Shown here piece after piece: positions 8,364 to 31,638 of a stretch of 38,194 bases of DNA (positions within the stretch are counted from its first letter, which is position 1; every line of letters begins with the position of its first letter). The translations under genes and the position numbers were made by a program. This DNA is from a virus. The stretch lies in UHGV virus genome UHGV-0004901; one strand, given 5' to 3'. The notes beneath the pieces were generated by a model that ran no database searches, had not been told where the DNA came from, and worked only from the letters and a program-made list of their open reading frames with translations.

Positions 8364-8366
8364 ATC

Positions 8367-11535: not shown

Positions 11536-11877
11536 TTGATGGCTAAATCAGCAGCAGAGCGCAAAGCCGCTCAGAGAGCCAGACAAGCTGAATCCGGTGT
11601 ACGTAAGCTGGAGATTGTGCTTGATGCTCAGGAAATTGAAATGCTGGAGCGGAACTGCGCCGCCCGGCGCCCTGGTCGAGATCCCTATGAAATGGCCGAG
11701 TACATCGCGCTGATGATCCGCCAGGATGATGCCCGGGTGCGCGGGCGTATAAAATCGATCAGCAGAAAACGTTGCGGTAAGTGCGGCGAGAGAGTTCCAG
11801 TTAATTCATGCCCGTGTAATGGTGACTCGCAATGCTGGGTGACTAAAGGCTGGCATGAAACGAAATTAATAGTGTGA
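11536..11877 (+). CDS. Putative late-gene regulator: N-terminal basic/RHH-like region and C-terminal Cys-rich motif
   Basis: 113 aa; ...RKRCGKCGERVPVNSCPCNGDSQCW; sits directly upstream of the terminator that precedes the packaging operon; its stop codon lies inside a GTGACATGTCAC palindrome. Confidence 0.4.
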   Translation: MMAKSAAERKAAQRARQAESGVRKLEIVLDAQEIEMLERNCAARRPGRDPYEMAEYIALMIRQDDARVRGRIKSISRKRCGKCGERVPVNSCPCNGDSQCWVTKGWHETKLIV

Positions 11878-11885
11878 CATGTCAC
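11874..11885. repeat. 12-bp perfect palindrome GTGACATGTCAC (copy 1 of 3)
   Basis: Direct reading; overlaps the TGA stop of the 11536..11877 gene. Confidence 0.8.
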
Positions 11886-11926
11886 GAGTAGATTATGCAT
11901 GATGAATTTGATGGGTTTTGAATACT

Positions 11927-11952
11927 GCCGCCAACTATGGCGGCTTTATTTT
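11927..11952 (+). terminator. Rho-independent terminator upstream of the packaging operon (tR'-like)
   Basis: GCCGCC-AACTAT-GGCGGC hairpin followed by TTTATTTT. Confidence 0.6.
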
Positions 11953-11956
11953 GCAT

Positions 11957-11988
11957 GGTACTATTACCACAACGGTAACTATTACCAC
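11957..11988. promoter_or_regulatory. Direct repeat GGTA(A)CTATTACCAC x2 immediately upstream of the terminase small subunit gene; contains everted half-sites GGTAA-N3-TTACC
   Basis: Direct reading. Confidence 0.4.
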
Positions 11989-11995
11989 GGTGGTT

Positions 11996-12592
11996 ATGAT
12001 GCCTGCTGAACCTAAAACCTATAAACGCAAATCAACGCAATTTAAGCCACTAACAGCAATGCAGGAGGCTTATTGCCAGTCATACATCAAAACGCCTGAA
12101 AACCAGACTCAGGCAGCGATTAACGCAGGATTCTCCCCAAATACAGCGGCAGTTAAAGCCAGTGTCATGATGCGCGATGAACGCATTCAAAAACGGATTG
12201 CCGAGCTGATGGAGGAGCGCAACAAACGAATGCGCGTCAGTGCCGATTACGTTCTTATGCGCCTGGTGGAGATCGACCAGATGGATGTGATCGACATCCT
12301 CAACGACGATGGGAGCCTTAAACCAATCCGTGAGTGGCCGAAAATCTGGCGCACTACGCTTAGTGGCTTTGATCTGTCATCGACCATCATGAACATGAAC
12401 GAGGATTCGATAGAGACAATCCTCAAAAAAATTAAATGGCCTGACAAGGTGAAGAACCTTGAGCTGATTGGTAAGCATGTTGATGTCAACGCGTTCAAAG
12501 AACGTCTGGATGTTAATGTGAATGTGACAATTGCTGATCGCATAGCAGCAGCCAGGAAGCGACTCAAAGAACGTCAGGATGGTAATCAGTGA
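11996..12592 (+). CDS. Terminase small subunit
   Basis: Position immediately upstream of the large subunit with a 4-bp overlap; start moved to ATG 11996 because the track ORF start at 11918 reads through a terminator. Confidence 0.65.
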   Translation: MMPAEPKTYKRKSTQFKPLTAMQEAYCQSYIKTPENQTQAAINAGFSPNTAAVKASVMMRDERIQKRIAELMEERNKRMRVSADYVLMRLVEIDQMDVIDILNDDGSLKPIREWPKIWRTTLSGFDLSSTIMNMNEDSIETILKKIKWPDKVKNLELIGKHVDVNAFKERLDVNVNVTIADRIAAARKRLKERQDGNQ

Positions 12593-14064
12593 CAGATGCA
12601 GCGTTATCTCCTGAAGAGCAGTTGATCGAGGATATTGCAGGGTTCACTCACGATCCGCTTGGCTATGCCCTCTATGCGTTCCCGTGGGGGGAAGAGGGGA
12701 CTGAACTGGCACATGCTACCGGCCCACGTCAGTGGCAGGCCGATGCGTTCCGAGAGATACGTGATCACCTGCAGAATCCCGAGACGCGCTATCAGCCGCT
12801 TATGCTGGCACGTGCTTCGGGCCACGGTATTGGTAAATCAGCATTCATCTCAATGTTGATCAACTGGGGCATGTCCACTTGCGAGGATTGTAAGGTCGTG
12901 GTGACCGCCAACACCGACAACCAGCTACGAACGAAGACCTGGCCGGAAATTATCAAGTGGTCGAACCTTGCTATCACGAAAGACTGGTTTACCTGTACCG
13001 CTACCGCGATGTACAGCAATGATCCTGGGCACGACAAGCGGTGGCGAGCTGACGCAATCCCCTGGTCTGAGCACAACACTGAGGCATTCGCCGGACTACA
13101 CAACGAGCGCAAACGCATCATCGTGGTATTCGATGAAGCGTCGAACATTGCGGATCTGGTGTGGGAAGTTGCTGAGGGTGCGCTTACGGACGAAGACACT
13201 GAGATTATCTGGGTGGCGTTCGGAAACCCTACTCGTAACACCGGGCGTTTCCACGAATGTTTCCGCAAATATAAACACCGCTGGAAAACTGCGCAGATTG
13301 ACAGCCGGACGGTGGAAGGCACTAACAAACAGCAGTTGCAGAAATGGGTTGATGACTACGGGGAAGATAGCGACTTCGTTAAAATCCGTGTGCGCGGCAT
13401 ATTCCCTGATGCATCTGAATTGCAGTTTATCCCTACCGGTCTTACTGATGAGGCAATGAAACGGGTGGTAACCGCTGCGCAGGTGGCGCATGCTCCGGTG
13501 ATAATCGGCGTTGACCCGGCATACTCCGGCGTTGATGACGCTGTGATATACCTGCGGCAGGGGCTGCACAGTAAGGTGCTATGGACTGGTAACAAGACCA
13601 CCGACGATCTGATTATGGCGAAGCGTATCGCTGACTTTGAAGACCAGTATCAGGCTGACGCGGTGTTCATCGACTTCGGTTACGGTACCGGTCTGAAGTC
13701 AATCGGTGATGGTTGGGGGCGCACATGGCAACTTGTTCCGTTCGGTGGCGCGTCTACTGACCCGCAGATGCTCAACAAGCGTGGGGAGATGTTCAACTCA
13801 TGCAAGACATGGCTGAGGCTGGGCGGGATGCTGGATGACCAGGAAACAGCGGACGACCTGTCGGCGGCAGAGTATAAAGTTCGAGTGGACGGTAAAATCG
13901 TTATCGAACCGAAGGAAGATATCAAGGAGCGGCTTGGGCGTTCTCCTGGTAAAGGCGATGCGCTACTGCTGACGTTTGCTTTCCCTGTGTCAAAGCGTCT
14001 GCGAATTCCCGGGCAGCAGAACCAGCAAGGCAAGGCCATCACAGATTACGATCCCTATGCTTAA
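12589..14064 (+). CDS. Terminase large subunit (GTG start)
   Basis: 491 aa; Walker A-like ARASGHGIGKSAF; overall terminase ATPase/nuclease layout. Confidence 0.9.
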   Translation: MTDAALSPEEQLIEDIAGFTHDPLGYALYAFPWGEEGTELAHATGPRQWQADAFREIRDHLQNPETRYQPLMLARASGHGIGKSAFISMLINWGMSTCEDCKVVVTANTDNQLRTKTWPEIIKWSNLAITKDWFTCTATAMYSNDPGHDKRWRADAIPWSEHNTEAFAGLHNERKRIIVVFDEASNIADLVWEVAEGALTDEDTEIIWVAFGNPTRNTGRFHECFRKYKHRWKTAQIDSRTVEGTNKQQLQKWVDDYGEDSDFVKIRVRGIFPDASELQFIPTGLTDEAMKRVVTAAQVAHAPVIIGVDPAYSGVDDAVIYLRQGLHSKVLWTGNKTTDDLIMAKRIADFEDQYQADAVFIDFGYGTGLKSIGDGWGRTWQLVPFGGASTDPQMLNKRGEMFNSCKTWLRLGGMLDDQETADDLSAAEYKVRVDGKIVIEPKEDIKERLGRSPGKGDALLLTFAFPVSKRLRIPGQQNQQGKAITDYDPYA

Positions 14065-14113
14065 TCCGCTAGTGGGGATAATGTCGTTGATATCCTCTGA
14101 TGAGGATAAAACA

Positions 14114-14140
14114 AAGCCAGCTCATCGGCTGGCTGTTTGT
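14114..14140 (+). terminator. Rho-independent terminator after the terminase large subunit gene
   Basis: AGCCAGC-TCATC-GGCTGGCT hairpin followed by GTTTGT; immediately followed by a GTGACATGTCAC palindrome. Confidence 0.55.
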
Positions 14141-14150
14141 GACATGTCAC
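14139..14150. repeat. 12-bp perfect palindrome GTGACATGTCAC (copy 2 of 3)
   Basis: Direct reading. Confidence 0.8.
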
Positions 14151-14154
14151 GGTG

Positions 14155-14511
14155 TTATTGCTCGCTTAACTTCTGCTTCAGCAAGTAACCTTCGAGCATC
14201 CAGATTTTGTTTACAGCATTCTGCCGGGCAATCTTCCGACCAATTTCTGCATCAAAATTTTCCGGACTTGCACAGGCACTCTCTCCGGTGACGGTGAAGC
14301 CATTCTTCAGTACCAATACGCAGAAAGTCAGGAGGTCTGTAGATTTATGCGCTGTCCATGAATCGCCAACGCCCATATTGGCAGCACGAATGCCGTCATA
14401 AGCAGTAAAGAAATGCTCTTCAAGAATGATGCTTTCGATATATTGAGGCGTAACTCGCGGAGCGGTTTTGCCTTTCTCAACGATTTCTTTTTCGATTTGC
14501 TGGTCGTTCAT
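14155..14511 (-). CDS. Hypothetical protein (118 aa), reverse-oriented insert between terminase and portal
   Basis: ORF with SD AAGGTGAG; preceded directly by a terminator hairpin; no recognisable motif. Confidence 0.55.
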   Translation of the reverse strand: MNDQQIEKEIVEKGKTAPRVTPQYIESIILEEHFFTAYDGIRAANMGVGDSWTAHKSTDLLTFCVLVLKNGFTVTGESACASPENFDAEIGRKIARQNAVNKIWMLEGYLLKQKLSEQ

Positions 14512-14522
14512 AATCTCACCTT

Positions 14523-14546
14523 AAAAAAATGCCCGGCGAACCGGGC
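14523..14546 (-). terminator. Rho-independent terminator downstream of the tRNA, abutting the SD of the 14155..14511 gene
   Basis: Minus-strand GCCCGG-TTCG-CCGGGC hairpin followed by a T7 run. Confidence 0.65.
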
Positions 14547-14709
14547 GAACTGGAAGCAATGAGTTATGCCTTCCGTGGCTGTACTGGTTTACAGCATGAA
14601 GTCATCGCAATGGCGTCCTGCTGTAAAAAGGGCGGTGATAGTCCTTCAAGGGAAACCATCACCGCCAAGCCCCTGGAACTTCTGGCATCACGGTCCTTAG
14701 GCGTGATTC

Positions 14710-14786
14710 TGGCGTGGCATGCAGGATTCGAACCTGCGACCAACCGCTTAGAAGGCGGTTGCTCTGTCCAACTGAGCTAATGCCAC
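14710..14786 (-). tRNA. tRNA-Arg, anticodon UCU (decodes AGA), phage-encoded
   Basis: Folded by hand: 7-bp acceptor stem GUGGCAU/AUGCCAC, D-arm GCUC..GAGC, anticodon stem ACCGC/GCGGU with loop CUUCUAA, T-arm GCAGG-UUCGAAU-CCUGC, discriminator G and encoded CCA. Confidence 0.85.
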
Positions 14787-15108
14787 AACGCTGAGAGCAC
14801 TTAGCCTGTTAAGGCGCCACACTTTGTCGCGGCTCCATAAATGCTCTCATCGTTGTACCCTCGTCTCTTCCGAGGCGTCACACCGAATCGCCGGGATGGT
14901 GAATCCCCGTGCGCGGAATAAAACCGCTCGACTTGCACATTCCGGCTACCTGGTTCGTTTGCCCGAGCAAGGGAGGGTGCCCCTTAAACGTATCCAGACC
15001 GCTATCGGCGCATGTGCCATACGCCGTACTGCTCAAAATAAAAGCTCACTCCACCTGTTCAATTTAACGACAAGCCAGTCAGGTTAATAACCGGAATGAA
15101 CCATTTGC

Positions 15109-15123
15109 TTACCTGAAAGGTAA
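15109..15123. promoter_or_regulatory. Operator-like palindrome TTACCTGAAAGGTAA upstream of the virion gene block
   Basis: Direct reading; followed at 15165..15187 by a CATATGTGGTT-N5-GGTAATA element. Confidence 0.5.
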
Positions 15124-15213
15124 TAATTCGTGCGTTAAATGTCAACTGTCTACGATAAATAAATCATATGTGGTTAAATTGGTAATAATTTAATTGCGTA
15201 CGGAGTCATTGAT

Positions 15214-15420
15214 ATGTGCATGGGTAGCTCACCGTCAGTGCCTGCAACACCAGAAGTTCAGGCAGCACCACAGGAGCAGGATGCCGCCGTTGTTGATGCC
15301 CGCGACGAAGAAACTCGTCGCCGTCGCGCTGCTGCTGGTCGTAGTTCTACGCTGCTTACCGGTTCTCAGGGTGACACATCAACCGCTAATACCAGCGGTA
15401 AAACGCTGCTTGGTCAGTAA
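15214..15420 (+). CDS. Small low-complexity protein (68 aa), possibly a minor virion protein
   Basis: Initiation context CGGAGTCATTGATATG is nearly identical to the portal gene's (CGGAGTCATTGAAATG). Confidence 0.4.
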   Translation: MCMGSSPSVPATPEVQAAPQEQDAAVVDARDEETRRRRAAAGRSSTLLTGSQGDTSTANTSGKTLLGQ

Positions 15421-15434
15421 CCGGAGTCATTGAA

Positions 15435-17114
15435 ATGGCGGAAACAACTAAAGAGCGATTGAACAAACAGTTCGCACAACTTGAAAGCGAGCGTCAGTCG
15501 TTCGAGCCGCACTGGCGCGAGTTGAGTGATTACATCAACCCGCGTGGTTCCCGCTTTCTGACTTCTGAGGTCAACCGTAACGATCGACGCAATACACGCA
15601 TTATTGATTCGACCGGGACTATGGCGGCGCGCACTCTCGCCAGCGGCATGATGTCAGGCATCACAAGCCCCGCGCGTCCGTGGTTTCGCCTGGCTACGCC
15701 AGATCCTGAAATGATGGATTATGGCCCTGTTAAGTTGTGGCTTGAGGCGGTGCAGAACCGCATGAACGATATGTTCAATAAGTCGAATCTCTATCAGTCG
15801 CTGCCGCAGTTATACGGAAGCCTCGGCACATACAGCACTGGTGCAATGGCAGTGCTGGAGGATGACGAGGACATCATTCGCACAATGCCATTCCCGATAG
15901 GCAGTTACTACCTGGCTAACTCACCTCGTGGCAGTGTGGACACCTGTTTTCGCAAGTTCTCTATGACTGTTCGTCAGCTTGTTCAGGAGTTCGGGCTAAA
16001 TAACGTCAGCGAATCCGTAAAAAGCATGTGGGAAAGCGGAACCTACGAGAAGTGGATTGAAGTGATGCATTCGGTTTACCCGAACATTGACCGCGATACA
16101 TCGAAGCTGGATAGCAAGAACAAGCCATTCAAATCGGTTTATTACGAGGTTGGTGGCGATAACGACAAGTTGTTGCGTGAGTCCGGATTCGATGAGTTTC
16201 CAATTATGGCTCCGCGCTGGGAAGTTAACGGCGAAGATGTTTATGGATCATCATGCCCGGGTATGCTGGCGCTTGGACCTGTTAAGGCATTGCAGCTTCT
16301 CCAGAAGCGCAAGTCGCAGTTGATTGATAAAGCCACCAATCCGCCGATGGTTGCTCCGACTTCCCTCAAGAATCAGCGCGCCTCTCTTCTTCCTGGCGAC
16401 ATCACGTATATCGATCAGATTACTGGTCAGGATGGTTTCAGGCCTGCTTATCTGGTTAACCCCAGTACAGCAGATCTGGTAGCAGACATTCAGGACACCC
16501 GCCAAATCATTAACAGCGCCTACTTTGTCGATCTGTTCATGATGTTGCAGAACATCAATACCCGCTCGATGCCTGTTGAAGCAGTGATCGAAATGAAAGA
16601 AGAAAAGCTTCTGATGTTGGGGCCGGTTCTGGAGCGTCTGAACGACGAATGTCTTAACCCTCTCATTGACCGCGCTTTCTCGATGATGGTGCGTAAAAAC
16701 ATGCTGCCGCCACCGCCTGACGCGATGGAAGGTATGCCCCTGAAGGTCGAATACATTTCCGTCATGGCTCAGGCGCAGAAGTCTATCGGCCTGTCCAGTC
16801 TGGCGTCTACGGTCAACTTCATTGGTCAACTTGCGCAAGCGAAACCAGAAGCTCTCGACAAACTCAACGTTGATCAGGCGATCGATGCATTCGCTGATAT
16901 GTCCGGAGTGTCTCCAACCGTCATTGTTCCGCAGGAACAGGTTGAGCAGGCTCGCCAGCAACGGGCACAGCAACAACAGCAGCAACAAATGATGGCGATG
17001 GGGATGGCGGCGGCACAGGGGGCCAAGACGCTAAGCGAAGCTAAAACTTCGGATCCGAGTGTGTTGTCAGCTATGGCGAATGCAGTTAGTGGTCAGGGTG
17101 GGCAATCACAATGA
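15435..17114 (+). CDS. Portal (head-to-tail connector) protein, T7 gp8-like
   Basis: 559 aa; Gln/Met/Ala-rich C-terminal tail (…QQRAQQQQQQQMMAMGMAAAQGA…) resembles the T7 gp8 C-terminus; gene order portal-scaffold-capsid. Confidence 0.8.
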   Translation: MAETTKERLNKQFAQLESERQSFEPHWRELSDYINPRGSRFLTSEVNRNDRRNTRIIDSTGTMAARTLASGMMSGITSPARPWFRLATPDPEMMDYGPVKLWLEAVQNRMNDMFNKSNLYQSLPQLYGSLGTYSTGAMAVLEDDEDIIRTMPFPIGSYYLANSPRGSVDTCFRKFSMTVRQLVQEFGLNNVSESVKSMWESGTYEKWIEVMHSVYPNIDRDTSKLDSKNKPFKSVYYEVGGDNDKLLRESGFDEFPIMAPRWEVNGEDVYGSSCPGMLALGPVKALQLLQKRKSQLIDKATNPPMVAPTSLKNQRASLLPGDITYIDQITGQDGFRPAYLVNPSTADLVADIQDTRQIINSAYFVDLFMMLQNINTRSMPVEAVIEMKEEKLLMLGPVLERLNDECLNPLIDRAFSMMVRKNMLPPPPDAMEGMPLKVEYISVMAQAQKSIGLSSLASTVNFIGQLAQAKPEALDKLNVDQAIDAFADMSGVSPTVIVPQEQVEQARQQRAQQQQQQQMMAMGMAAAQGAKTLSEAKTSDPSVLSAMANAVSGQGGQSQ

Positions 17115-17407
17115 CAGATTACGAAGACGATCAACTGAAAGAAGAAAACGCCCGTAAGCAACGTGACATGGCGCAGCGTGAAATTGATGACATTCGCTTT
17201 GTCATGAGCAGTGAACAGGGGCGTCGCGTTGTCTGGTCGGTGCTGGAGAAAGGCCGTGTGTTTTCCGCTATCTCACCGATGGACGCTATGGCAATGGCAT
17301 TTAATGAGGGGCAACGCAATCTGGCGCTGGAACTGTTTCAGCGCGTTATGGCGCATTGCCCTGAACAGTATTTGAAGATGGCCAAAGAGGCCAGTGAACA
17401 GGAGTGA
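17111..17407 (+). CDS. Hypothetical protein (98 aa), coupled to the portal gene
   Basis: ATGA overlap with the portal stop. Confidence 0.45.
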   Translation: MTDYEDDQLKEENARKQRDMAQREIDDIRFVMSSEQGRRVVWSVLEKGRVFSAISPMDAMAMAFNEGQRNLALELFQRVMAHCPEQYLKMAKEASEQE

Positions 17408-17409
17408 TC

Positions 17410-18105
17410 ATGAATTTATTTGAGCGTTTGCTGTATCGCCGTCTTTGCAATGAGCAACCAGTCGATGGTGGAGCAGCTCCGGCTGCGTCAGAACCGTCAG
17501 CGCCTGCAGGTGATAACCCTGCTCCAGTTGGTGATCCATCACAACAGGAAGGTGATAAGCCACAACCTGTTGCTGATGGCGATAAACCTGCTGATGACAA
17601 AAAGCCTGAAAACGATAAGCAGGATGAAAAAAAGGACGGCGATAAACCAGAGGGTGCGCCTGAGAAGTACGAGTTTCAGGCAGCCGAAGGCGTAGAGCTG
17701 GATACAGAAGCGTTGAAGGAATTCGAGCCGGTGGCGCGAGAACTTAACCTGACCAACGAGCAAGCGCAAAAGCTGGTTGATGCTTATCCGAAGATTCTGG
17801 CAGGTGTTCAGCAGCGCCAGGCAGAAGCCTGGCAGAAAACAACCGAGCAGTGGGCTGCGGATGTAAAAGCTGACAAAGAAATCGGTGGCGACAAGTTGAT
17901 TTCTAACCTTAGCGCCGCACAGCGTGCGCTTGACCAGTTCGGGACACCTGAACTCAAAGAATATCTGAACACCACCGGACTGGGTAATCACCCTGATCTG
18001 GTCAAAACGTTCGTGAAAATCGGAAAGGCGATGTCTGAAGATGGCATGGTCACCGGTGGTAATGAAGGCCAGCGTAGTGCGGCCGAAGTGCTCTATGGCA
18101 AATAA
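17410..18105 (+). CDS. Scaffolding protein (putative)
   Basis: Acidic, low-complexity, helical-looking protein between portal and capsid; SD GGAG 6 nt upstream of ATG 17410. Confidence 0.55.
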   Translation: MNLFERLLYRRLCNEQPVDGGAAPAASEPSAPAGDNPAPVGDPSQQEGDKPQPVADGDKPADDKKPENDKQDEKKDGDKPEGAPEKYEFQAAEGVELDTEALKEFEPVARELNLTNEQAQKLVDAYPKILAGVQQRQAEAWQKTTEQWAADVKADKEIGGDKLISNLSAAQRALDQFGTPELKEYLNTTGLGNHPDLVKTFVKIGKAMSEDGMVTGGNEGQRSAAEVLYGK

Positions 18106-18113
18106 GAGAGGAA

Positions 18114-19106: not shown

Positions 19107-19157
19107 CGCCTGTTATTAACCTGTGGGTCGTAACAGACCCACTAATGGAGAAAGAAG

Positions 19158-19595
19158 ATGATCACCGACAAACTGTTGATGTTCTCCGAAGCTCAGGCGG
19201 TTACGAATACCGCGGCTTCTACTGACGTAATCGATCTCGGTCCAATTGACGGAAAACGTCGTGATATCGGCGTGGGTTACCCGCTTGAGTTTTGGGCGCT
19301 GGTTAACACAGCCGCCGCGGCAAGCGGTGATGCAACTGTAAACATCCAGTTGCAGACGAGTGAGAATAACAGCTCATGGACCACTATTTATGATAGTGGC
19401 GCACTGGCAAAGACCGCCCTGACAGCAGGTAAACGAGTTGTTTCTGCAAAGGTGCCTGCCGGTGTTCAGCGATATCTGCGTGTTAACTACTCCGTCGCAA
19501 CTGGCCCACTAACGGCTGGCGAATTCACTGCTGGTATCAGTCTTGATGTTGATGCCAATACGCCGTATCCGATCCGCTCAAAAGTAACTGGTTAA
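19158..19595 (+). CDS. Hypothetical capsid-associated protein (decoration-protein position)
   Basis: Position only. Confidence 0.35.
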   Translation: MITDKLLMFSEAQAVTNTAASTDVIDLGPIDGKRRDIGVGYPLEFWALVNTAAAASGDATVNIQLQTSENNSSWTTIYDSGALAKTALTAGKRVVSAKVPAGVQRYLRVNYSVATGPLTAGEFTAGISLDVDANTPYPIRSKVTG

Positions 19596-19605
19596 GGTGA
19601 TATCG

Positions 19606-19941
19606 ATGTCAGGTGAGAAACCAAGATACCGCGTTCTGCGCCTCTCTCATATCCATAACACTCTGTGGCCGGAGGGGGCAGAAATCGAATACGAAGGTGA
19701 GCCTGGTAGCGCACTGGAACCTGTTAACGATGCAGCCAGACAGGCAAAAGCAAAAGTTGCAGGAAAGGTGTCAATGGCAGCAACCAGCACCAAAATCATC
19801 AACGATGTGTCAGATGATGGTGAACTGGATAAGCTCCGTGAAGAGTACGAATTGCTCTTTAACGAGAAGCCACACCATAACGCCAAAGCCGAAACGCTCC
19901 GCGAGAAGATCGCAGATAAGCGTAAAGAACTGGGCGTGTAA
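19606..19941 (+). CDS. Hypothetical protein
   Basis: ATG 19606 with SD AAGGTGA; track ORF started at GTG 19597. Confidence 0.4.
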   Translation: MSGEKPRYRVLRLSHIHNTLWPEGAEIEYEGEPGSALEPVNDAARQAKAKVAGKVSMAATSTKIINDVSDDGELDKLREEYELLFNEKPHHNAKAETLREKIADKRKELGV

Positions 19942-19957
19942 GCCTCGCGAATCAGAC

Positions 19958-19980: not shown

Positions 19981-19997
19981 CAGGAGTATAGAAACTT

Positions 19998-24083: not shown

Positions 24084-26704
24084 TGCCAGTCGTACCAACA
24101 GTATCCGGACGTCAGGTTGAGAGTCGTGGAGTTCAGTCAGCAGGCTTGCAGACGTTTTCTCAGCCAGGTATTGGTGATGCTTTTGTTCGGGCAGGGACAG
24201 AGGCAATTGATGTTTTTGGTCAGGCAAAACAGCGTGCCAATATTGCCTTTGTTCAGGAGGCATCCCTTAAACTCAGTCAGACAGGCAGTGATCTGCTGAA
24301 TAATCCTGAAACAGGATTGCTTAACCTGAAAGGGAAAAATGCTATTGGAAAAGGCCATGAGTATACGCAGCAGTTTGATGCTCAGGTTGAACAACTGGCT
24401 ATGTCGCTGCCAGATGAACAGGCTCGTAATGCTTTCATGCAGCAGGCGCAGCAACAGCGTATTCAGTTCACTACGCAGGCCGGGAGGTACGAAATAGGAC
24501 AGGTTCGCCAGTATGAGGCGGATATGCAGGATGCGACACTAAAAAACCTATCGATGCAGTTCCGTAACCCGACAATGGCAAACCAGGCAGGATTGAAGGC
24601 ATATCATAGCATCATCGCTTACGGCGAAGCCCACGGCCAGAGTCAGGAAGAGATCGAACAGAACTGGGTTTCGTGGCGCGAGAATGCCGCGAACGGTGCG
24701 GCGGAGGCGTGGTATGTGCCGATGTATCAACAGATGATGGGGCCGAACGGCAAGATTGAGGTAACCGATACACCGAGTGAGGCGCAGTTATTCTCTGCAA
24801 TAATCTGGCAGGAGAGTGGCGGAAATCAGTACGGAAAGGACGGAACACCTCTGGTGTCGCCAAAAGGCGCTGTTGGCGTAGCGCAGGTGACGGAAGATAC
24901 TGGCCCCGAAGCTGCCCGCCTTGCTGGTGTGCCGTGGGACCGAGATAAATGGTTGAATGACCCGCGCTATAATGCCCGCTTGGGGCAAGCTTATTTCGGC
25001 GCGCAGATGAAGAAATACGACAATAACCCGGTTCTGGCAGTAGCTGCCTATAACGCTGGCCCAGGAAAGGTTGACGGCTGGATTAAACAGATTGGCGATC
25101 CGCGCACAGGCGAAGTCAGTAACGCCCAGTTTGCCGCAGCTATCCCATACGACGAGACGCGCAATTATGTGGCAAAAGTAACTGGCAGTGCTGGAGCTAT
25201 TCCTGGATCTGCGACGATGGAAAACCTCATCGCACAGCCATTCTGGAACGCCATGAGTCCGGACAAAAAGTCGCAGATGATGAGCAAGGTTGCTGGCATG
25301 TACGACATGCAGGCTTCAGCCGGTCGCGTTGCGCTACAGAGTCGAATGCAGGACGACCTATCCAAAATTGAGGCCGGTAAGCAGGTGACGCCTATTTCAG
25401 CGCACGAATGGGCCGCCGTTATGCCGCTTCAGGCAGCGCCTGCCGAGCGCCTGCAGATGGAAAAAACCTTCCAGCAATACCAGCAGGCAATGACGCTACA
25501 ACCTGTTTATCAGACCATCATGCAGGGCAACGTCCAGCAGGGTACCGCCGCCGTGCAGGCAATGGCACCGCAGGAAAACGACCCTGACTTTAAATACAAA
25601 GCCGAGCTTTATGCATCGGCAAAGGTCAAGCTTGGGCAGGTACTGAAGGCGCGGGAAGCGGATCCGGGGGTATGGCTGCAACAAAACTCTCCGGTTGTGC
25701 AGGCTGCATTCCAGCAGTACCTCAATGACCCTTCATCTGGTGAATACCTAGTTTCCCGCATACAGTCTGAAAAAGACCGCCTGGGGATAATGAGCAAAAA
25801 AGTTTTACCGGAGTCCATGGTTAACGACGTACTGCAGCGTATTGACAACACGCAGGAATCTAGCGTAAAGGCCATTCAGTCGGTGGCGCAGTCGTTCGGC
25901 AAATACTCGGATCAGGTGATGTGGCAGGTGCAAAATAAAGCATTCCCAGCTTTAAAGGTTGTAATGTCTACAGAAAACCAACGGGCAGCAGATGCGTTGT
26001 GGCAAATACGGAATGTATCTACTTCTGATTTGAGATCTGGTTTGGATAAAAACCAGGCAGACAGTGCAGACTCATCGTGGACAGATCAATTTAAAGATTT
26101 TTCTTCAACTCTTATTCCTCAGAGAAATGGTGCTGAAAACTGGACTATTTATAACGAGCAGGGAAAACGCTTGACCTACAACTACATGCAGCGCGGAATG
26201 TCGGCGTCTGATGCAGCAAAACAGGCGTATCAGGACCTTCTCGGCGAGCAGTACCAGACCAATGGCACTTGGCGGCTACCTAAGCGTGCAGGGATAGATA
26301 TTCGTGACGTTAACGATGGTGCCAATGCGTATCTGAAAAACCTGTCAGCAGATCAGATTATGCCGCTTATTGGTGACCCAAGGCTACCTGATGAGGTCAA
26401 CCGTGAGCAGAGTATCTCCCGCATTCGTGATAATGCGCAGTGGGTTACCAACAGCGACGAAACAGGACTTACCCTGATGCTCAACGGGCTGATCGTCAAC
26501 GGTGCCGACGGCAACCCGATTACGGTGCCGTTCAACGATCTGGCGAAACTGGGAACAACCAACCGATCAGTATGGAACAGCATTACCAAGTTCATTGATA
26601 CTCCGGTGAAATATACTCCCGGACAGTCTAAGGAATACAGCGCAGAAAGTCAGCGCGACAACCTGATTAACATTTTCCAGAACGGCCAGCAATCAGGACG
26701 ATAA
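24083..26704 (+). CDS. Internal virion (ejection) protein with lytic transglycosylase domain
   Basis: Start at ATG 24083 (SD GGAGGA); SLT motifs ...IIWQESGGNQYG... and ...AAYNAGPGKV... Confidence 0.8.
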   Translation: MPVVPTVSGRQVESRGVQSAGLQTFSQPGIGDAFVRAGTEAIDVFGQAKQRANIAFVQEASLKLSQTGSDLLNNPETGLLNLKGKNAIGKGHEYTQQFDAQVEQLAMSLPDEQARNAFMQQAQQQRIQFTTQAGRYEIGQVRQYEADMQDATLKNLSMQFRNPTMANQAGLKAYHSIIAYGEAHGQSQEEIEQNWVSWRENAANGAAEAWYVPMYQQMMGPNGKIEVTDTPSEAQLFSAIIWQESGGNQYGKDGTPLVSPKGAVGVAQVTEDTGPEAARLAGVPWDRDKWLNDPRYNARLGQAYFGAQMKKYDNNPVLAVAAYNAGPGKVDGWIKQIGDPRTGEVSNAQFAAAIPYDETRNYVAKVTGSAGAIPGSATMENLIAQPFWNAMSPDKKSQMMSKVAGMYDMQASAGRVALQSRMQDDLSKIEAGKQVTPISAHEWAAVMPLQAAPAERLQMEKTFQQYQQAMTLQPVYQTIMQGNVQQGTAAVQAMAPQENDPDFKYKAELYASAKVKLGQVLKAREADPGVWLQQNSPVVQAAFQQYLNDPSSGEYLVSRIQSEKDRLGIMSKKVLPESMVNDVLQRIDNTQESSVKAIQSVAQSFGKYSDQVMWQVQNKAFPALKVVMSTENQRAADALWQIRNVSTSDLRSGLDKNQADSADSSWTDQFKDFSSTLIPQRNGAENWTIYNEQGKRLTYNYMQRGMSASDAAKQAYQDLLGEQYQTNGTWRLPKRAGIDIRDVNDGANAYLKNLSADQIMPLIGDPRLPDEVNREQSISRIRDNAQWVTNSDETGLTLMLNGLIVNGADGNPITVPFNDLAKLGTTNRSVWNSITKFIDTPVKYTPGQSKEYSAESQRDNLINIFQNGQQSGR

Positions 26705-26705
26705 C

Positions 26706-28403
26706 ATGCCAATTTACACAGATGATCCGGGACAGGGCATTAACCAGCCAATTGGCAACGCGCCAGCAGGGCTTGGCGAATCGCTGCTTTCTTCCCTTAA
26801 GCAGGGATTTGAAGAGGGGCCGGTCATGTCCGGCTACCGCTTTGCGCAGGCCGACTCGCTGACGAATGACCCAAACTCTACAGTTATCAGTAAGCAGGAC
26901 GCAGATGAGCTCCTGAAGCAGTACGGCGTAAAGAGCATAAACGTGCCAGATTCTGGCGTTACGCAGGCTTTTCTCGATCATGTTATTGCCGAACGCAAAG
27001 ATTCTCTGGCACGCCAGCAGATTGCGATGTCGGCACCGAGCGGGTGGGTAGCCACGCCGCTTAATTTCGCAGCCAGCCTAGCTGGTTCAATGGCAGATCC
27101 TGGTAACGTGGCGCTGGCGCTGGTTCCGTTCGCTGGAGAAGCAAAGGCAGCTTCTGTGCTTGGCCGATTTGGCGAGCGATTTGTTGCTGGTGCACGCATG
27201 GGGGCAGCGCAGGCGGTGGTGACCGTGCCGCTTACCGGGCTGGCAGCGGCGGCGGAAGGTGACGACTTCACCTATAGCAACGCGTTGGAAAGTACTTTCT
27301 TTAACACGATGGCTGGCGGCCTAATGCATGCCGGCGGCGGCCTTATCGCCGATATCGTGCGACCGCGTCGCGTTCCCGATGCTGCAACGGGAGAGTCCCC
27401 GGCGTTTTCTGGCGATGCGCAGCCAACCCCGGTGATAACGCCTGACAACATTCCGGCGGGCGTGAATATCCCTGAGGTTGGCGCTAACGCAGATCTGGCG
27501 GCGGCCATTTCCAGTGAAGCGGAGAGCTACGCATACAGCCGGGCTTATGACGACGTGGTTCCTGACTATATGGCGCGCCAGCAGGAGTTACAGAGCGGGC
27601 AGATCGGTAACGTAGCCGACCTGCGTGCCGAGCTTGCGGCTAATCAACGTCATGCTGACTCGCTTGATGCGACGCTGCAGCAGCGCACCAAAAAGTATCA
27701 GGGGCAGCGGATGAAGTTTAAGGATGCGCGCTCTAGGGCACTGAAAGAGATTCAGGCCGAGAAAGACGCCATCGCTGCACGCAATCAGGAGATCAACACA
27801 TCGCTGGAGCAGAACGCGACAGCAGAGCAGGCGCGCTGGCGCCAGTCTCAGATTTCCCGCGGCGAGATCCCCGACGACCTGAAAGTCACCATTTCCGAGC
27901 GTGCGCAGCAGATCCTGGACGGCATGCAGATGTCGCCGGTCGCTGGCGCAGTTCGCACTGCCGCAAGCGCCATCAGGGATGCTGACTGGAGCGTGAACCA
28001 GCAGGCGTATCGCGCTGCGCTGGCACACATGATGGAAGGACGTAGCCCAGATGTTGAGCCCTTCTATGAACTGCACAAACCGGCACTGCGTGAACGCGCC
28101 ATCCATCGCATACAGAATCCGGCACGGCAGGTTGATGAAACGGCTCGCCCAGCAAGCGAAACAGCCGATCGGGTTTATCAAGAAACGCAAAAGGCAGATC
28201 ATGAAATTACCGCTGCCGCTGCAGACCTTGATAACGAGCTCAACCTGAGTAACGCCCTGCTTGACGATATCGCTGTCGATAACCCTGATCTTGCGACCAC
28301 GTTGCGCCAGAAACTCAATGATATTCGTGTCGACGCCAGCGACAATAGCATGAGCAACGCTTTCCGGGCATTTGCCGCCTGTATGATTAACCGGGGGATG
28401 TGA
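26706..28403 (+). CDS. Internal virion/ejection protein (putative)
   Basis: 565-aa ORF within the ejection-gene block; position and coupling. Confidence 0.5.
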   Translation: MPIYTDDPGQGINQPIGNAPAGLGESLLSSLKQGFEEGPVMSGYRFAQADSLTNDPNSTVISKQDADELLKQYGVKSINVPDSGVTQAFLDHVIAERKDSLARQQIAMSAPSGWVATPLNFAASLAGSMADPGNVALALVPFAGEAKAASVLGRFGERFVAGARMGAAQAVVTVPLTGLAAAAEGDDFTYSNALESTFFNTMAGGLMHAGGGLIADIVRPRRVPDAATGESPAFSGDAQPTPVITPDNIPAGVNIPEVGANADLAAAISSEAESYAYSRAYDDVVPDYMARQQELQSGQIGNVADLRAELAANQRHADSLDATLQQRTKKYQGQRMKFKDARSRALKEIQAEKDAIAARNQEINTSLEQNATAEQARWRQSQISRGEIPDDLKVTISERAQQILDGMQMSPVAGAVRTAASAIRDADWSVNQQAYRAALAHMMEGRSPDVEPFYELHKPALRERAIHRIQNPARQVDETARPASETADRVYQETQKADHEITAAAADLDNELNLSNALLDDIAVDNPDLATTLRQKLNDIRVDASDNSMSNAFRAFAACMINRGM

Positions 28404-30952
28404 TGGCAGCAAACGAATTTTTGACGCAGTGCGAGCGCAGTGTAAATGCTGCCGCTGGTCGCGAGCTTTCTTCCGATGAGATGGAGTCGCTGGTGCGTGA
28501 CATGAACGACACCACTAGGCGAATTCTGGCGACCAATGAGGCGCTGTCTCTGGAAGAGGCCGCGATGCGCGCAGCGGAAGAACTGAGCAATACCGATATG
28601 CTGGCAAAACAGATTGAGGCTCGCAATAAGGCAATCAACACCCGTATTGCAGCACAACGACTTAGAGAGCTTCGTACTATCTGGAAAGACCGCCCGGATA
28701 TCGGGCTTGAAGCAATGCTGGTTGGCCGCAACGATGCGCGTACCGGCGCCCGCCGGTCGGTATCTTCGGAGGTGGCGCAACTGCGCGGCAAGTATCATTC
28801 CGGTATCAACTACGATTTTGACCGTGCCGGGCTAGTGCAATTCATCGCCAGCGGCAGCAATGACAGGGAAATTGCCGATGCAATGTGGCGCATAGGGCGC
28901 GGGCAGTCAACTGACGGTATGACAAAGCAATCCGTAAGCGCTGCACAAATCATCATGAAATGGCAGGAAACTGCGCGCATTGATGAGAACCGCGCCGGGG
29001 CATGGATACGCAAAGAGCCGGGCTATATAGTGCGCCAGTCACACGATATCATGAAGATCCGCGCCGCAGGTTATGAAGCATGGCGAAATGCTATTCTCCC
29101 GCGCCTTGATGAGCGCACTTTTGACGGCGTGGCTGACCGCGAGCAGTTCATGCATAACATTTATAACGGGCTGGCTTCCGGCGTGCATCTTACATCTGAA
29201 AAGCCAGATTGGATGAATGGCTTTAAGGGATCGGCGAACGCAGCTAAACGCGCCAGCCAAGAGCGAATTTTGCACTTCAAAGATGGTATCTCGTGGCACG
29301 AGTACAACCAGCAATTCGGCACCGGCAGCCTGCGAGAGGCGCTGTTTGGTGGCTTAAACAGCGCTGCCCGCACAACGGGCATGATGCGCGTACTGGGCAC
29401 TAACCCACAGAACATGTTTAAGTACCTGACGGACACCATTGCTGAAGATATCAGCAAATCCGGAAGACCGGCAGCGTTAGCTGACTACATGACGAAGGTG
29501 CGTCGCATTAACCGTACCGTAATGCCGCAGGTTGACGGCTCGCTAAATATTCCTGGCAGCGTAGGCTGGGCCAATGCGTCGGCGGCTGTACGCGGCTGGT
29601 TGCGTATGAGCCAGCTTGGTGGCGCGGTAATCTCATCGTTTAACGACGTGCCTATCGCCGCTACCGAGATGCGCTACCAAGGGCAGAATTTTATGCAGGC
29701 GTTGCTTGGTGCTATGAGAGGCCGCTTCACGCGTTACAACAGCGCGGAGCAGAAAGAGATCCTTTCCTCTATCGGAGTTTATTCCGACTCCATGACGCAG
29801 GAAATCATCCGGCGCATATCTGGTGATGACACGCTGAATGGAAAACTTGGTCGCGCGCAGCAGCTTTTCTTTAAGTACAACCTCATGAACTTCTGGACCG
29901 AGAGCGGTCGTAACAGCAACGCCATGATGATAACCAACTGGCTTGCAAAGAATGCTGACCAGTCTCATGCGCGGCTACCGGAAGACCTGCGACGCGTGCT
30001 GGATCTGCACGGTATTGGCGAACGTGAGTGGGAAATTTTTCGCAACATGGACATGGCCGATAGCGAAGGTCGTAAGTTCATGACGACCAGCGGCATGCGC
30101 GGCGTGCCTGACGAAGTGATTGCCGGTTATGTAGAGAGTAAGGGGATCAAACCAACGCAGCGCGCTATCGCTGACGCACGCGATCAATTGGAAGGGCAGT
30201 TGCGCGGCTACATCCTTGACCGCCTGAATATCGCCATGTCAGAGCCTGGCGATCGCACGCAGGCGTTTATGAAGATGGGCACGGTGCCAGGAACGGTGGC
30301 TGGGGAAGCAATACGATTCGCTGGTCAGTACAAATCGTTCACTGCAAGCTTCATGCAGAACGTACTAGGACGCGAAGTATTCGGGCGTGGTTATATTCCT
30401 GCTGGGCTTGGTGAGTCGAAAACCGGATCGCTGACGAATGCGCTGCTACGTAACGGGAAGGGGGCTTTCCTTGGTGCTGCAAACCTCTTTGTCTGGGCGA
30501 CTATGTTTGGTTATATCTCCATGCAGTCAAAACTCATGCTGAAAGGGCAAACACCACGCCCGGCAGATGCCAAGACGTTTCTCGCAGCCGCATCTCAGGG
30601 GGGCGGTCTTGGCATCTTGGGTGACTTCATGTTTGGCGAGGTCAACCGCATGGGGGCCGGGCCGGTTACGTCGCTAATGGGACCGGCTGCATCGAACGCT
30701 GACAGCATTATCACGCTGCTCCAGCAGACCACGAGGGGGGATGCAGATTTGGGTGACTGGTATCGCACGGCACTTGACAATACGCCATTCCTCAACGTGT
30801 TCTGGCTTCGTACGGCGATGAATGGTTTAATATTGAACCGGATACAAGATGCCCTTGACCCAGGCTCTCTTGAGCGTTATCAGCGCCGTGTTGAGCGTGA
30901 ACAGGGTAACGACTTTCTGATCCCACCATCGCAGTTCATGCTAGGGAAGTAA
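28403..30952 (+). CDS. Internal virion/ejection protein (putative)
   Basis: Start at ATG 28403, overlapping the upstream stop (TGATG); position. Confidence 0.55.
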   Translation: MAANEFLTQCERSVNAAAGRELSSDEMESLVRDMNDTTRRILATNEALSLEEAAMRAAEELSNTDMLAKQIEARNKAINTRIAAQRLRELRTIWKDRPDIGLEAMLVGRNDARTGARRSVSSEVAQLRGKYHSGINYDFDRAGLVQFIASGSNDREIADAMWRIGRGQSTDGMTKQSVSAAQIIMKWQETARIDENRAGAWIRKEPGYIVRQSHDIMKIRAAGYEAWRNAILPRLDERTFDGVADREQFMHNIYNGLASGVHLTSEKPDWMNGFKGSANAAKRASQERILHFKDGISWHEYNQQFGTGSLREALFGGLNSAARTTGMMRVLGTNPQNMFKYLTDTIAEDISKSGRPAALADYMTKVRRINRTVMPQVDGSLNIPGSVGWANASAAVRGWLRMSQLGGAVISSFNDVPIAATEMRYQGQNFMQALLGAMRGRFTRYNSAEQKEILSSIGVYSDSMTQEIIRRISGDDTLNGKLGRAQQLFFKYNLMNFWTESGRNSNAMMITNWLAKNADQSHARLPEDLRRVLDLHGIGEREWEIFRNMDMADSEGRKFMTTSGMRGVPDEVIAGYVESKGIKPTQRAIADARDQLEGQLRGYILDRLNIAMSEPGDRTQAFMKMGTVPGTVAGEAIRFAGQYKSFTASFMQNVLGREVFGRGYIPAGLGESKTGSLTNALLRNGKGAFLGAANLFVWATMFGYISMQSKLMLKGQTPRPADAKTFLAAASQGGGLGILGDFMFGEVNRMGAGPVTSLMGPAASNADSIITLLQQTTRGDADLGDWYRTALDNTPFLNVFWLRTAMNGLILNRIQDALDPGSLERYQRRVEREQGNDFLIPPSQFMLGK

Positions 30953-30953
30953 T

Positions 30954-31325
30954 ATGAACAGAATTATATTAATGATTATTCTTATGCTTTTAGTTGTAAA
31001 ATCTTTTGCAGATACTACCTCACCGTTAATGATTCAGCCTAAAAATGGGGAAACACTGGAGGATTCTAAAAAGCATACAATGGAATATTTTGGATGTATA
31101 AAAGGGCAGGTCGTAAAATACGCTAAGACAGGAGAAAGTGTTGATTCTATATCCAAAGCTTCGGTTGTGTCATGCGAGTCGTACATACAAAAGATTGCTG
31201 AATCAAATATATACTATTTAAATTCCTCTCAAGACGGTAAGCGGAAATTTATTGGAAGGCTTAAATCAGATGGTGAAAATTTAGCAACGAAATTTGCTAT
31301 GGATGAAAAGCTAAAAAATAAATAG
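30954..31325 (+). CDS. Secreted/periplasmic protein with signal peptide (moron, about 33% GC)
   Basis: N-terminal MNRIILMIILMLLVVKSFA signal peptide; two Cys in the mature part; very AT-rich compared with about 52% GC for the flanking virion genes. Confidence 0.55.
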   Translation: MNRIILMIILMLLVVKSFADTTSPLMIQPKNGETLEDSKKHTMEYFGCIKGQVVKYAKTGESVDSISKASVVSCESYIQKIAESNIYYLNSSQDGKRKFIGRLKSDGENLATKFAMDEKLKNK

Positions 31326-31333
31326 GTGACTAC

Positions 31334-31630
31334 ATGCAAGCGATAGGATTCATTGTTTATATCGTCGTTGGTCTTTTTCAGTTGGCAGCAATTATGGCTG
31401 GGCTTGAATCATGGTGGGGATTGCACTGGATAATTGCAGCCCCCATTGCTTTCATCGTGAGCTATATTCCATTTGTTGGAGCGATTGTTGGTATGGTTGG
31501 CGCTGTGGATGTATGGCGGTGGGAGTGGTGGCAGGCTGGCCTTCTCTTCTTTGGTGGGATCATCTTTGCTATTGTCTGCGGTGGAATGTCATCATTTTTC
31601 GAATGGCTATCATTCAGAAAAGGAACGTGA
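31334..31630 (+). CDS. Small integral membrane protein (3-4 predicted TM segments); candidate holin or exclusion protein
   Basis: 98 aa, hydrophobic throughout, Trp-rich loops; stop codon embedded in a GTGACATGTCAC palindrome. Confidence 0.5.
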   Translation: MQAIGFIVYIVVGLFQLAAIMAGLESWWGLHWIIAAPIAFIVSYIPFVGAIVGMVGAVDVWRWEWWQAGLLFFGGIIFAIVCGGMSSFFEWLSFRKGT

Positions 31631-31638
31631 CATGTCAC
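31627..31638. repeat. 12-bp perfect palindrome GTGACATGTCAC (copy 3 of 3)
   Basis: Direct reading; overlaps the TGA stop of the 31334..31630 gene in the same register as copy 1. Confidence 0.8.

Follow-up and report, generated by a model that had tools for sequence, protein, structure and literature searches.

A conserved palindrome at transcription-unit ends of epsilon15-like prophages and its putative phage-encoded binding protein

Palindromic sites in the prophage and its relatives

The window, the whole stretch of 38,194 nt that was analyzed, is an E. coli prophage resembling epsilon15 and phiV10 (Uetakevirus). Its landmarks are collected in Table 1. The palindrome GTGACATGTCAC is present in exactly three exact copies, at 11874-11885, 14139-14150, and 31627-31638; an exact search thus returned the coordinates given in the original prediction, which had also described the three positions as module boundaries. 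This description holds, and the units closed by the sites are, in succession, the early-right, packaging, and structural units. For GTGACNNGTCAC, three matches are found compared with a mean of 0.03 in 100 dinucleotide-preserving shuffles, none of which reached three. The palindrome is real, and the number of its copies is far above chance, as had been claimed.

Table 1. Positions of the motif copies and of neighboring genes and signals in the window
Feature	Position	Strand	Remark
Candidate-binder gene, 112 aa	11539..11877 (ORF 11536..11877)	+	PHROG 536 "transcriptional regulator"
Motif copy 1 (T-GTGACATGTCAC-G)	11873..11886	none	Closes the early-right transcription unit
Intrinsic terminator, hairpin then T-run	11927..11944	+	41 nt downstream of copy 1; equivalent annotated in epsilon15
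Two epsilon15-type repressor operator-like sites (ATTACC-N5-GGTAAT, one mismatch each)	11963..11997	none	Open the packaging unit
Terminator hairpin adjoining copy 2	14115..14134	-	Minus strand with strong T-run, plus strand with weak GTTTG tail
Motif copy 2 (T-GTGACATGTCAC-G)	14138..14151	none	Between the large-terminase hairpin and the stop of 14155..14511
Reverse gene, Pfam Phage_gp49_66	14155..14511	-	Stop 4 nt before copy 2 on the minus strand
Repressor operator-like site	15108..15124	none	Opens the structural unit ending at copy 3; equivalent annotated in epsilon15
Small gene, PHROG 3075 (unknown function)	31334..31630	+	TGA stop within copy 3
Motif copy 3 (C-GTGACATGTCAC-A)	31626..31639	none	Abuts the terminator closing the long structural operon
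Intrinsic terminator	31639..31656	+	Begins on the base right after copy 3

Copy 1 includes the TGA stop codon (11875-11877) of the candidate-binder gene (ORF 11536..11877), and copy 3 that of the ORF at 31334..31630, both in the same register (G-TGA-C), as originally noted. Coding constraint was rejected as a cause, the ORF covering just 4 of the 12 bases at each of these copies. Copy 2 follows the large-terminase hairpin, again as predicted, and the terminator scan calls this hairpin on the minus strand (14134-14115). Read on that strand, the order is the stop of 14155..14511, 4 nt, the palindrome, 4 nt, and the terminator.

Relatives from Escherichia, Salmonella, Enterobacter, and Klebsiella carry the palindrome at the same three positions, and seven Uetakevirus genomes, which come from four host genera and are about 80% identical in DNA, share all three. 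A lack of positional conservation in related phages had been named beforehand as evidence against the prediction; conservation is strong. Copy 1 is found in 76 of 78 related viral loci, copy 2 lies 2.2-3.5 kb downstream of copy 1 in 51 of 71, and copy 3 is present in 54 of 61, despite varying genes on its left and terminators on its right. The position of copy 2 is common to epsilon15, phiV10, SPN1S, Tyrion, Kp4865-1, and 66FD. The closely related complete prophage of E. coli SW070919 (42.8 kb), which is identical over 11536-11990 of the window, has exactly three copies. The epsilon15 and phiV10 records that we examined leave the conserved palindrome unannotated, the 12-mer appears in none of the papers searched, and no published account of the motif was found in that literature.

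Several GenBank records begin just after copy 1, because their numbering by convention begins at the small-terminase gene. A role as a genome end (cos or pac) was rejected, as the site is remote from cos in N15 and P2-like phages.

A 14-bp motif next to terminators

Comparison of the relatives shows that the 12-mer is the core of a 14-bp motif with two-fold symmetry, Y-GTGAC-NN-GTCAC-R, in which position -1 is Y, position +12 is R, and conservation ends at these bases. The half-sites are invariant, unlike the two central bases. Inverted arms with a 2-bp spacer occur in 270 copies (146 unique contexts) in 2.8 Mb of related loci, with 2.66 expected, and they are the only enriched form; other spacings and everted arrangements in the same loci give 0-3 copies each. 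It had been stated in advance that a palindrome common in the host genome would speak against the prediction, and no copy of the motif was found in a limited sample of 114 kb of host DNA. The binding sequence of SlmA, GTGAGTACTCAC, differs from the palindrome at 4 of 12 positions.

Of 110 unique sites, 64 have a terminator hairpin on the 3' side, mostly 0-4 nt away and sometimes 20-40 nt, compared with 21 of 600 random positions, and none has a terminator on the 5' side only. The motif marks transcription-unit ends. Repressor operator-like sites stand at the head of each rightward unit of the window, and the palindrome with a terminator stands at its end. The operator-like sites at 11963..11997 and 15108..15124 provide context and lie outside the palindrome system. 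The palindrome itself was rejected as the main immunity operator, because the annotated repressor sites of epsilon15 follow another motif, ATTACC-N5-GGTAAT. It was also rejected as a promoter: the GTGACA half resembles a -35 element, yet downstream -10 matches are weak and no commoner than in shuffles. The promoter-like match over copy 1 is weak (9/12), and such matches are not more numerous than in shuffled sequence.

The constant placement of the sites on the transcribed side of terminators, together with a 4-bp mini-hairpin predicted beside each terminator hairpin, would fit an element acting in RNA, either a small hairpin in the 3' UTR or a processing signal, with an effect on the ends or stability of transcripts. 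We regard this as highly improbable. The hairpin alone has a predicted energy of -1.2 kcal/mol, not better than in shuffles; sequence rather than pairing is conserved, with two variable central bases and no compensatory variation; the Y/R symmetry reaches past any stem; and the candidate partner has a predicted fold that binds double-stranded DNA. No Rfam family matches at the palindromes, and the whole window yields only tRNA, C4, and isrK at the gathering threshold.

The original prediction offered recombination junctions as one reading of the sites, and the behavior of the flanks bears on this directly. Left and right flanks are reassorted among relatives, and homology breaks 0-4 nt from the 12-mer. 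In 1038 pairs of unique site contexts, one flank is at least 80% identical and the other unrelated, and in 840 of these identity ends 0-4 nt past the 12-mer. At copy 3, more than ten unrelated left flanks are joined with several different right-hand terminators. The part of the claim concerning junctions stands as a pattern, flanks being reassorted at the motif edges, but nothing shows the motif catalyzing exchange. That the palindrome is mainly a recombination site for the exchange of gene modules between phages appears improbable to us, since a conserved functional island in fast-evolving DNA would give the same junction pattern. No recombinase co-occurs with the motif, the only one in the window being the integrase (193..1443), with its attachment site at guaA; neither a recombinase nor long arms accompany the motif, whose conservation ends at 14 bp. 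To our knowledge, 5-bp arms around a 2-bp center are too short for the known core sites of tyrosine or serine recombinases, which also counts against this reading. Furthermore, P2-like phages keep a single copy, at the stop codon of the regulator, and a recombination site fails to predict either the adjacency to terminators or the coupling to a ribbon-helix-helix gene described below. Instead, the motif may be conserved for its function and provide microhomology in addition.

A candidate binder coupled to the site

Homologs of the protein encoded at 11539..11877 include epsilon15 gp49, phiV10 p55, and N15 gp46. The family, PHROG 536, bears a merely generic name, comprises 212 clusters at 50% identity, and is found in about 12% of complete E. 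coli genomes. The protein has a conserved basic N-terminal helix, a predicted ribbon-helix-helix core, and a Cys-rich C-terminal region. Its AlphaFold monomer model, of medium confidence (pLDDT 75), has the topology helix, extended segment, helix, helix, so that the strand-helix-helix fold of ribbon-helix-helix proteins is predicted to be present. No Pfam or NCBIfam family matches the protein at E<=0.01, nor even at E<=10, a profile search gave no PDB sequence match, and the sole match in a viral structure library is a fragment of the same protein.

The TGA of the gene usually lies within the motif in podovirus, myovirus, and siphovirus lineages, with identities as low as about 25-35%, examples being N15 gene 46 and Yersinia P2-like gp13. 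Among 28 loci from bacterial genomes, the stop is embedded in the motif in 20 and the motif lies 5-9 nt past the stop in 4 more; these loci hold 39 motifs in 510 kb, with 0.49 expected. We also looked up eight distant cluster representatives with 26-35% identity. Five have the motif at, or at most 17 nt from, their own stop (one with a mismatch), and one has it at the start codon; in another the copies lie 0.7-3.7 kb downstream, and the more distant of them precedes a small-terminase gene by 28 nt; the last shows no motif on its 856-nt contig. Pseudomonas and Aeromonas phages with a homolog carry variants of the motif, for example four copies of GTGACCGGACAC. Variable residues of the predicted β-strand track the central dinucleotide (KLEIVL with AT, EIR with GC, IEV with AG), a co-variation that is only suggestive, and the invariant basic helix goes together with invariant half-sites.

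The coupling has exceptions. Family members at L099, L188, K308, and L190 have no site at their own stop, and some sites lie inside coding regions (N15 33237; a gene in L099-L101). One N15 site is located about 26 bp upstream of the -35 element of the antirepressor-operon promoter, and K308 and L188 each have one about 30 nt ahead of the small-terminase start codon; because of these placements, the outcome of binding may differ by context. In the direction from motif to gene, 37 of 79 viral stretches with the 14-mer among the matches listed show no homolog, but these stretches are short and cover only a few kb each. As far as comparison of genomes can tell, it is well supported that gene and site travel together over many unrelated phages. 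Co-occurrence, symmetry, and the predicted fold likewise make the pairing of protein and site well supported. The original suggestion of a site for a dimeric DNA-binding regulator thus gains strong comparative support from the 14-bp symmetry, the coupling to homologs of the 11536..11877 protein, which the original prediction had itself named as a candidate binder, and the predicted ribbon-helix-helix fold.

Proposed function and relation to known systems

We consider it probable that the 12-mer is the core of an operator for a dimer of the 11539..11877 protein, acting as a transcription boundary and module seam. The most likely mechanism would be a boundary or roadblock combined with autoregulation. 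The candidate binder is the final product of the early-right operon. Its basic N-terminal helix would read the invariant GTGAC half-sites, with the variable β-ribbon placed over the variable central dinucleotide, like α4 and β1 in MatP-matS. Each site is wedged in, with a stop codon on one side and an intrinsic terminator on the other, and there the bound protein could obstruct RNA polymerase from either side, strengthen termination, and insulate the units against read-through and convergent transcription. At the regulator's own stop codon, binding would provide negative feedback, like LacI at the 3' end of lacI. Since all relatives retain the 14 bp but not the flanks, the site also becomes the exact seam of module exchange. 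A roadblock right before a good terminator looks redundant, and part of the adjacency of sites and terminators could reflect how closely elements are packed in a compact genome.

This assignment provides a concrete, testable DNA target for a widespread, uncharacterized phage protein family, accounts for a conserved feature of a well-studied phage genus, and supplies a sequence marker for transcription-unit ends and mosaic-exchange seams. If the site does act as a boundary or roadblock, synthetic circuits could use it as a protein-dependent insulator element.

Operator-bound LacI at the 3' end of lacI is reportedly a roadblock that truncates the lacI mRNA and leads to tmRNA tagging, a finding attributed to Abo et al. 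in 2000. The likeness lies in a regulator's site at the 3' end of its own gene, where bound protein can block completion of the message; the fold is different, and the phage site, whose occupation is presumed, spans the stop codon and has a terminator after it. The mosaic "boundary" junctions between modules of lambdoid phages, said to have been described by Juhala et al. in 2000 and Clark et al. in 2001, similarly break homology at gene boundaries and receive different morons at the same place. Here, the seam retains a defined 14-bp sequence with a link to a specific protein family.

The gene also occupies the place of a lambda-type Q, as the last early gene, directly followed by a terminator and by late packaging or lysis genes (Uetakeviruses, L186, L191, L194). 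The same binder could hence be a late-gene antiterminator, loaded onto RNA polymerase just before terminators so that early-right transcripts reach the packaging and structural genes. Sites that precede terminators and never lie solely behind them would suit such a role, and no other late activator is recognizable in the window; we nevertheless consider it unlikely. Copy 2 precedes a terminator only for the leftward reverse gene and comes after the hairpin for terminase transcripts. N15 keeps the gene despite its own Q-like protein, as do P2-like phages, which presumably use an Ogr-type late activator. In L101 the gap between site and terminator is 12 nt, so there is no room for promoter-proximal loading, and several phage lineages lack room for a promoter-proximal pause, with copies 2 and 3 at convergent gene ends. 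The protein has no similarity to Q families, no Q-type binding element inside a late promoter was found, and a ribbon-helix-helix protein handed to elongating polymerase is without precedent.

The operator reading places the protein beside the ribbon-helix-helix repressors Arc, Mnt, CopG, MetJ, the ParD/MazE-type antitoxins, and AmrZ. What sets it apart from them is an additional conserved basic helix preceding the strand, a Cys-rich tail following the core, and the lack of a match to any Pfam ribbon-helix-helix model. Its site overlaps the stop codon of the gene rather than a promoter, and usually abuts terminators.

The best structural match of the model is MatP, suggesting that such proteins read such sites. 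The site of MatP, matS, is the 13-bp GTGAC-RNY-GTCAC, with the consensus oligonucleotide T-GTGACATTGTCAC-G (PMC8669397; PMC6907758). The phage motif has identical half-sites and the same preferred flanking bases (PMC6907758, PMC8669397), MatP reads DNA via helix α4 followed by the ribbon-helix-helix strand (PMC8669397), an order of elements that also appears in the medium-confidence phage model, and in both cases a few sites are scattered along long DNA. The identity of half-sites and even of the T/G flanks, and the rank of MatP among structural matches, might be taken to mean that a host factor, especially MatP or another GTGAC reader, binds the sites and that the phage exploits chromosome-organizing machinery. 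This is very unlikely. The spacer is 2 bp at 270 phage sites and the 3 bp of matS at one, prophages are reported to avoid matS (PMC3603311), and MatP is stated to occur only in enteric bacteria (PMC7188993). Moreover, the motif tracks the phage gene and not the host clade, with variants in Pseudomonas and Aeromonas phages, and its central dinucleotide shifts with the lineage of the phage protein.

Homology to MatP was not detected at the sequence level: hhalign gives a probability of 0.15-0.4% (<1%) with E. coli MatP, Pfam MatP (PF06303) and MatP_C (PF17414) do not match, and a profile search of PDB sequences with the phage protein does not recover MatP. The MatP side of this comparison is narrow, as a protein search with MatP gave only near-identical E. 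coli sequences. A literature search for MatP-like or matS-like phage systems gave nothing relevant. Given the reported avoidance of matS by phages, an orthogonal system, "one base shorter" than that of the host, may have evolved in them. PHROG 536 and Y-GTGAC-NN-GTCAC-R as a phage counterpart of MatP/matS, in which a helix-plus-ribbon-helix-helix protein would read matS-type half-sites at a spacing deliberately one base off that of the host and would organize or insulate the phage chromosome, is a reading we hold to be unlikely. Possible modes would be bridging of the three sites, blocking of polymerases or SMC complexes at unit boundaries, or disturbance of MatP-dependent processes of the host. 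The phage system departs from MatP in being phage-encoded, in placing its sites at transcription-unit ends with a strict 2-bp spacer, and in a protein that has a Cys-rich tail and neither four-helix bundle nor coiled-coil tail; the relationship could be one of ancient common descent or of convergence.

Three palindromes in an epsilon15-type prophage

The window is an epsilon15/phiV10-type podovirus prophage of the genus Uetakevirus. E. coli SW070919 has a prophage at the guaA 3' end with 100% identity to positions 11536-11990, and 639 of 5426 complete E. coli genomes contain related DNA. From left to right, the window carries the integrase, early-left genes, the repressor and early-right genes with ORF 11539..11877 (also listed as 11536..11877) as the last, followed by the small and large terminase genes, a reverse insert with a tRNA-Arg, the genes from portal to ejection proteins, two small genes, a reverse antirepressor module and the tailspike. 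In the SW070919 prophage (locus L197), which otherwise matches the window, the tailspike gene is broken at 35788-37001 by an IS3-family element; the tailspike ORF 34985..38059 of the window is intact, with 1024 aa.

The original prediction held that a palindrome, GTGACATGTCAC, occurs at 11874, 14139 and 31627 (copies 1, 2 and 3) too often for chance. We find these copies and no others in the window, and a looser pattern, GTGACNNGTCAC, has three matches; 100 dinucleotide-preserving shuffles average 0.03. As had been noted, the TGA stops of ORF 11536..11877 and ORF 31334..31630 are embedded in copies 1 and 3, while copy 2 follows the terminase terminator, with the hairpin 3' of the large terminase gene on one side and the stop codon of the reverse gene 14155..14511 on the other. 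The expected positional conservation is also observed: the identical 12-mer recurs at all three positions in epsilon15, phiV10 (where the record ends split one copy), SPN1S, Tyrion, Kp4865-1 and 66FD (with C at the centre of one copy). In IMG/VR relatives, 76 of 78 loci have copy 1, 51 of 71 have copy 2 and 54 of 61 have copy 3. Copy 3 is retained 157-1894 nt past the last large structural gene, regardless of the small genes inserted before it.

Across 102 unique contexts, the 12-mer is preceded by T or C in 101 and followed by G or A in 98, with no conservation seen beyond 14 bp. Because the flanking Y/R pair is conserved and nothing farther out is, we define the element as the 14-bp symmetric Y-GTGAC-NN-GTCAC-R. 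Its spacing is strict. In 2.79 Mb of fetched loci, inverted half-sites with a 2-bp spacer number 270, in 146 unique contexts, where 2.66 would be expected. For spacers of 0, 1 or 3-7 bp, and for every everted arrangement, the counts are 0-3. No copy is present in a limited sample of host chromosome (114 kb).

Association with the PHROG 536 family

ORF 11539..11877, whose product is the candidate binder, carries a merely generic PHROG 536 label, "transcriptional regulator", and has no match in Pfam, NCBIfam or PDB sequences. Its homologues are found in phages of unrelated types, accompanied by the motif. In N15, the TGA stop of gene 46 lies inside GTGACTGGTCAC, and two more copies are located elsewhere in the N15 genome; in Yersinia P2-like phages, the genome's only copy overlaps the homologue's stop. 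Of the three copies in Vibrio phage K308, one lies 30 bp upstream of the small terminase gene. Pseudomonas and Aeromonas phages with a homologue contain motif variants. In Aeromonas phage Asp37 (L319), GTGACCGGACAC, a variant that differs from the motif by one mismatch and has lost the palindrome, occurs four times, at 74, 3176, 27608 and 32503, and one of these copies precedes the homologue by 25 nt.

The 28 bacterial-genome loci found via the protein (510 kb) contain 39 motifs, compared with 0.49 expected. The stop is embedded in the motif in 20 of them, and in 4 more the motif lies 5-9 nt past a TAA stop. The family comprises 212 cluster representatives, of which we checked eight distant ones (26-35% identity) in metagenome assemblies. 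Five have the motif (one mismatched) at their own stop or at most 17 nt from it, and one has it at the start codon. In another, copies lie 0.7-3.7 kb downstream, the more distant of them 28 nt ahead of a small-terminase gene, and the eighth, on a contig of 856 nt, is without the motif.

Terminators, operators and mosaic junctions

A terminator-like hairpin is located 3' of the site at 64 of 110 unique sites, as against 21 of 600 random positions, mostly at a distance of 0-4 nt and otherwise at about 20 or 40 nt. At none of the 110 is a terminator present solely on the 5' side. An antiterminator acting at these positions, or a role of the palindrome at the RNA level, would be less consistent with the data than the protein obstacle proposed below.

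Features around the palindromes in the window and in viral contigs (L-numbers denote fetched loci)
Feature	Position	Strand	Remarks
Terminator near copy 1	11927-11944	+	
Terminator near copy 2	14134-14115	-	
Terminator near copy 3	31639-31656	+	
ATTACC-N5-GGTAAT sites	5157, 5219, 5931, 6316, 8286, 8348, 11963, 11981, 15108, 32585, 33652, 33745, 34865 and others		
C4 antisense RNA and isrK (Rfam)	33432-33515 and 33540-33616	-	directly upstream of Bro-N gene 32673..33398
Half-site arrays	L216 about 10780-10880; L235 about 740-810; L264 about 1900-1960; L245 about 3130-3185		

The starts of transcription units carry a different element. The window has 17 matches with at most 2 mismatches to ATTACC-N5-GGTAAT, the annotated repressor operator of epsilon15, compared with 1.07 expected. 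Sites at 5931, 11963/11981, 15108 and 34865 are at unit starts. Dispersed along the genome, such sites open the early and packaging units as well as the structural, antirepressor and tailspike units, a distribution that suggests direct repressor control of many promoters. With repressor operators at their starts and palindromes and terminators at their ends, three successive rightward units are thus bounded. As listed, the small terminase ORF 11918..12592 has a TTG start, as in phiV10 and RefSeq annotations, and spans the terminator near copy 1 and two operator-like sites; it probably begins, as its epsilon15 counterpart does, beyond position 11997.

Within the reverse module that follows copy 3, the C4/isrK/Bro-N set is a P1/N15-type RNA-controlled antirepressor operon; N15 has the same C4/isrK pair at 28301-28489. 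One N15 palindrome is found some 26 bp 5' of the -35 element of the isrK/C4/antirepressor promoter, and three loci (L099-L101) have one site within a conserved early-left gene. A consensus LexA box, TACTGTTTAAATGTACAGTA, and a good promoter are present just 3' of copy 1 in Kp4865-1 (L008, about 12735-12755) and in L096 (about 10580-10600); downstream of copy 1 in the window any equivalent is absent. In some viral contigs with the 14-mer, dense GTGAC/GTCAC half-site arrays flank the palindrome. They look like iterons or centromere-like repeats and may represent another use of the same recognition unit. GTGACCCGTCAC recurs in the conserved N-terminal coding region of tailspike genes (...LRDPSR...; L132-L134 and L177, about 7900-8400; L008, 36317), where it probably reflects coding constraint and not a binding site.

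Copy 3 has more than 10 unrelated left flanks, paired with several different terminators and right flanks. Among 1038 site pairs with one flank in common and the other unrelated, identity ends 0-4 nt past the 12-mer in 840. The junction pattern implied by the proposal of module exchange at the palindrome is present; the pattern is no proof that the motif drives exchange, and a primarily recombinational role is less consistent with the data than protein binding.

The candidate binder and known systems

When aligned, family members share a conserved basic segment at the N terminus (RK..QR.R); a variable stretch and two helices follow, and the tail contains conserved Cys (CxxC...C...C). The AlphaFold model of the 112-aa protein (pLDDT 75) predicts a helix at 5-19, an extended segment at 20-29, helices at 30-43 and 52-75, a Cys-rich region and a helix at 100-109. 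Across the few independent lineages, the putative strand residues co-vary with the central dinucleotide and both the basic helix and the half-sites are constant, which agrees with the proposed reading mode of half-sites and centre.

The host protein MatP binds GTGACRNYGTCAC (PMC6907758, PMC3603311) and reads matS in the major groove via helix alpha4 and strand beta1 (PMC8669397). Removing one central base from the consensus matS oligonucleotide gives the phage motif. The matS arrangement, GTGAC-N3-GTCAC (13 bp), has two sites in the 114 kb of host chromosome, one matching the matS consensus GTGACATTGTCAC and the other departing from RNY. K308 (L005) has, besides its three 12-bp sites, a ParA-like gene and one 13-bp site, GTGACACCGTCAC, at 19491 that fits the host consensus. 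Homology of the phage protein to MatP is unsupported by sequence comparison (hhalign probability <1%), and use of the phage sites by host MatP is less consistent with the data than recognition by the phage's own protein.

The best explanation, which we regard as likely, is that the 14-bp motif and the PHROG 536 protein form a cognate protein-operator pair, since the motif is symmetric, its spacing is strict, one family is coupled to it across very different phages and a DNA-binding fold is predicted. We infer that the bound protein would be a symmetric obstacle at transcription-unit ends, which agrees with the placement of all three copies, two of which (2 and 3) lie at convergent junctions. 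LacI exerts feedback by binding at the end of lacI, and by analogy a site overlapping the stop codon of the regulator gene would mediate feedback on the regulator. Ribbon-helix-helix regulators with palindromic operators are an already known kind of system. As far as the literature consulted shows, the assignment of this family to its site, the conserved stop-codon overlap, the adjacency to terminators and the matS-type half-sites are new.
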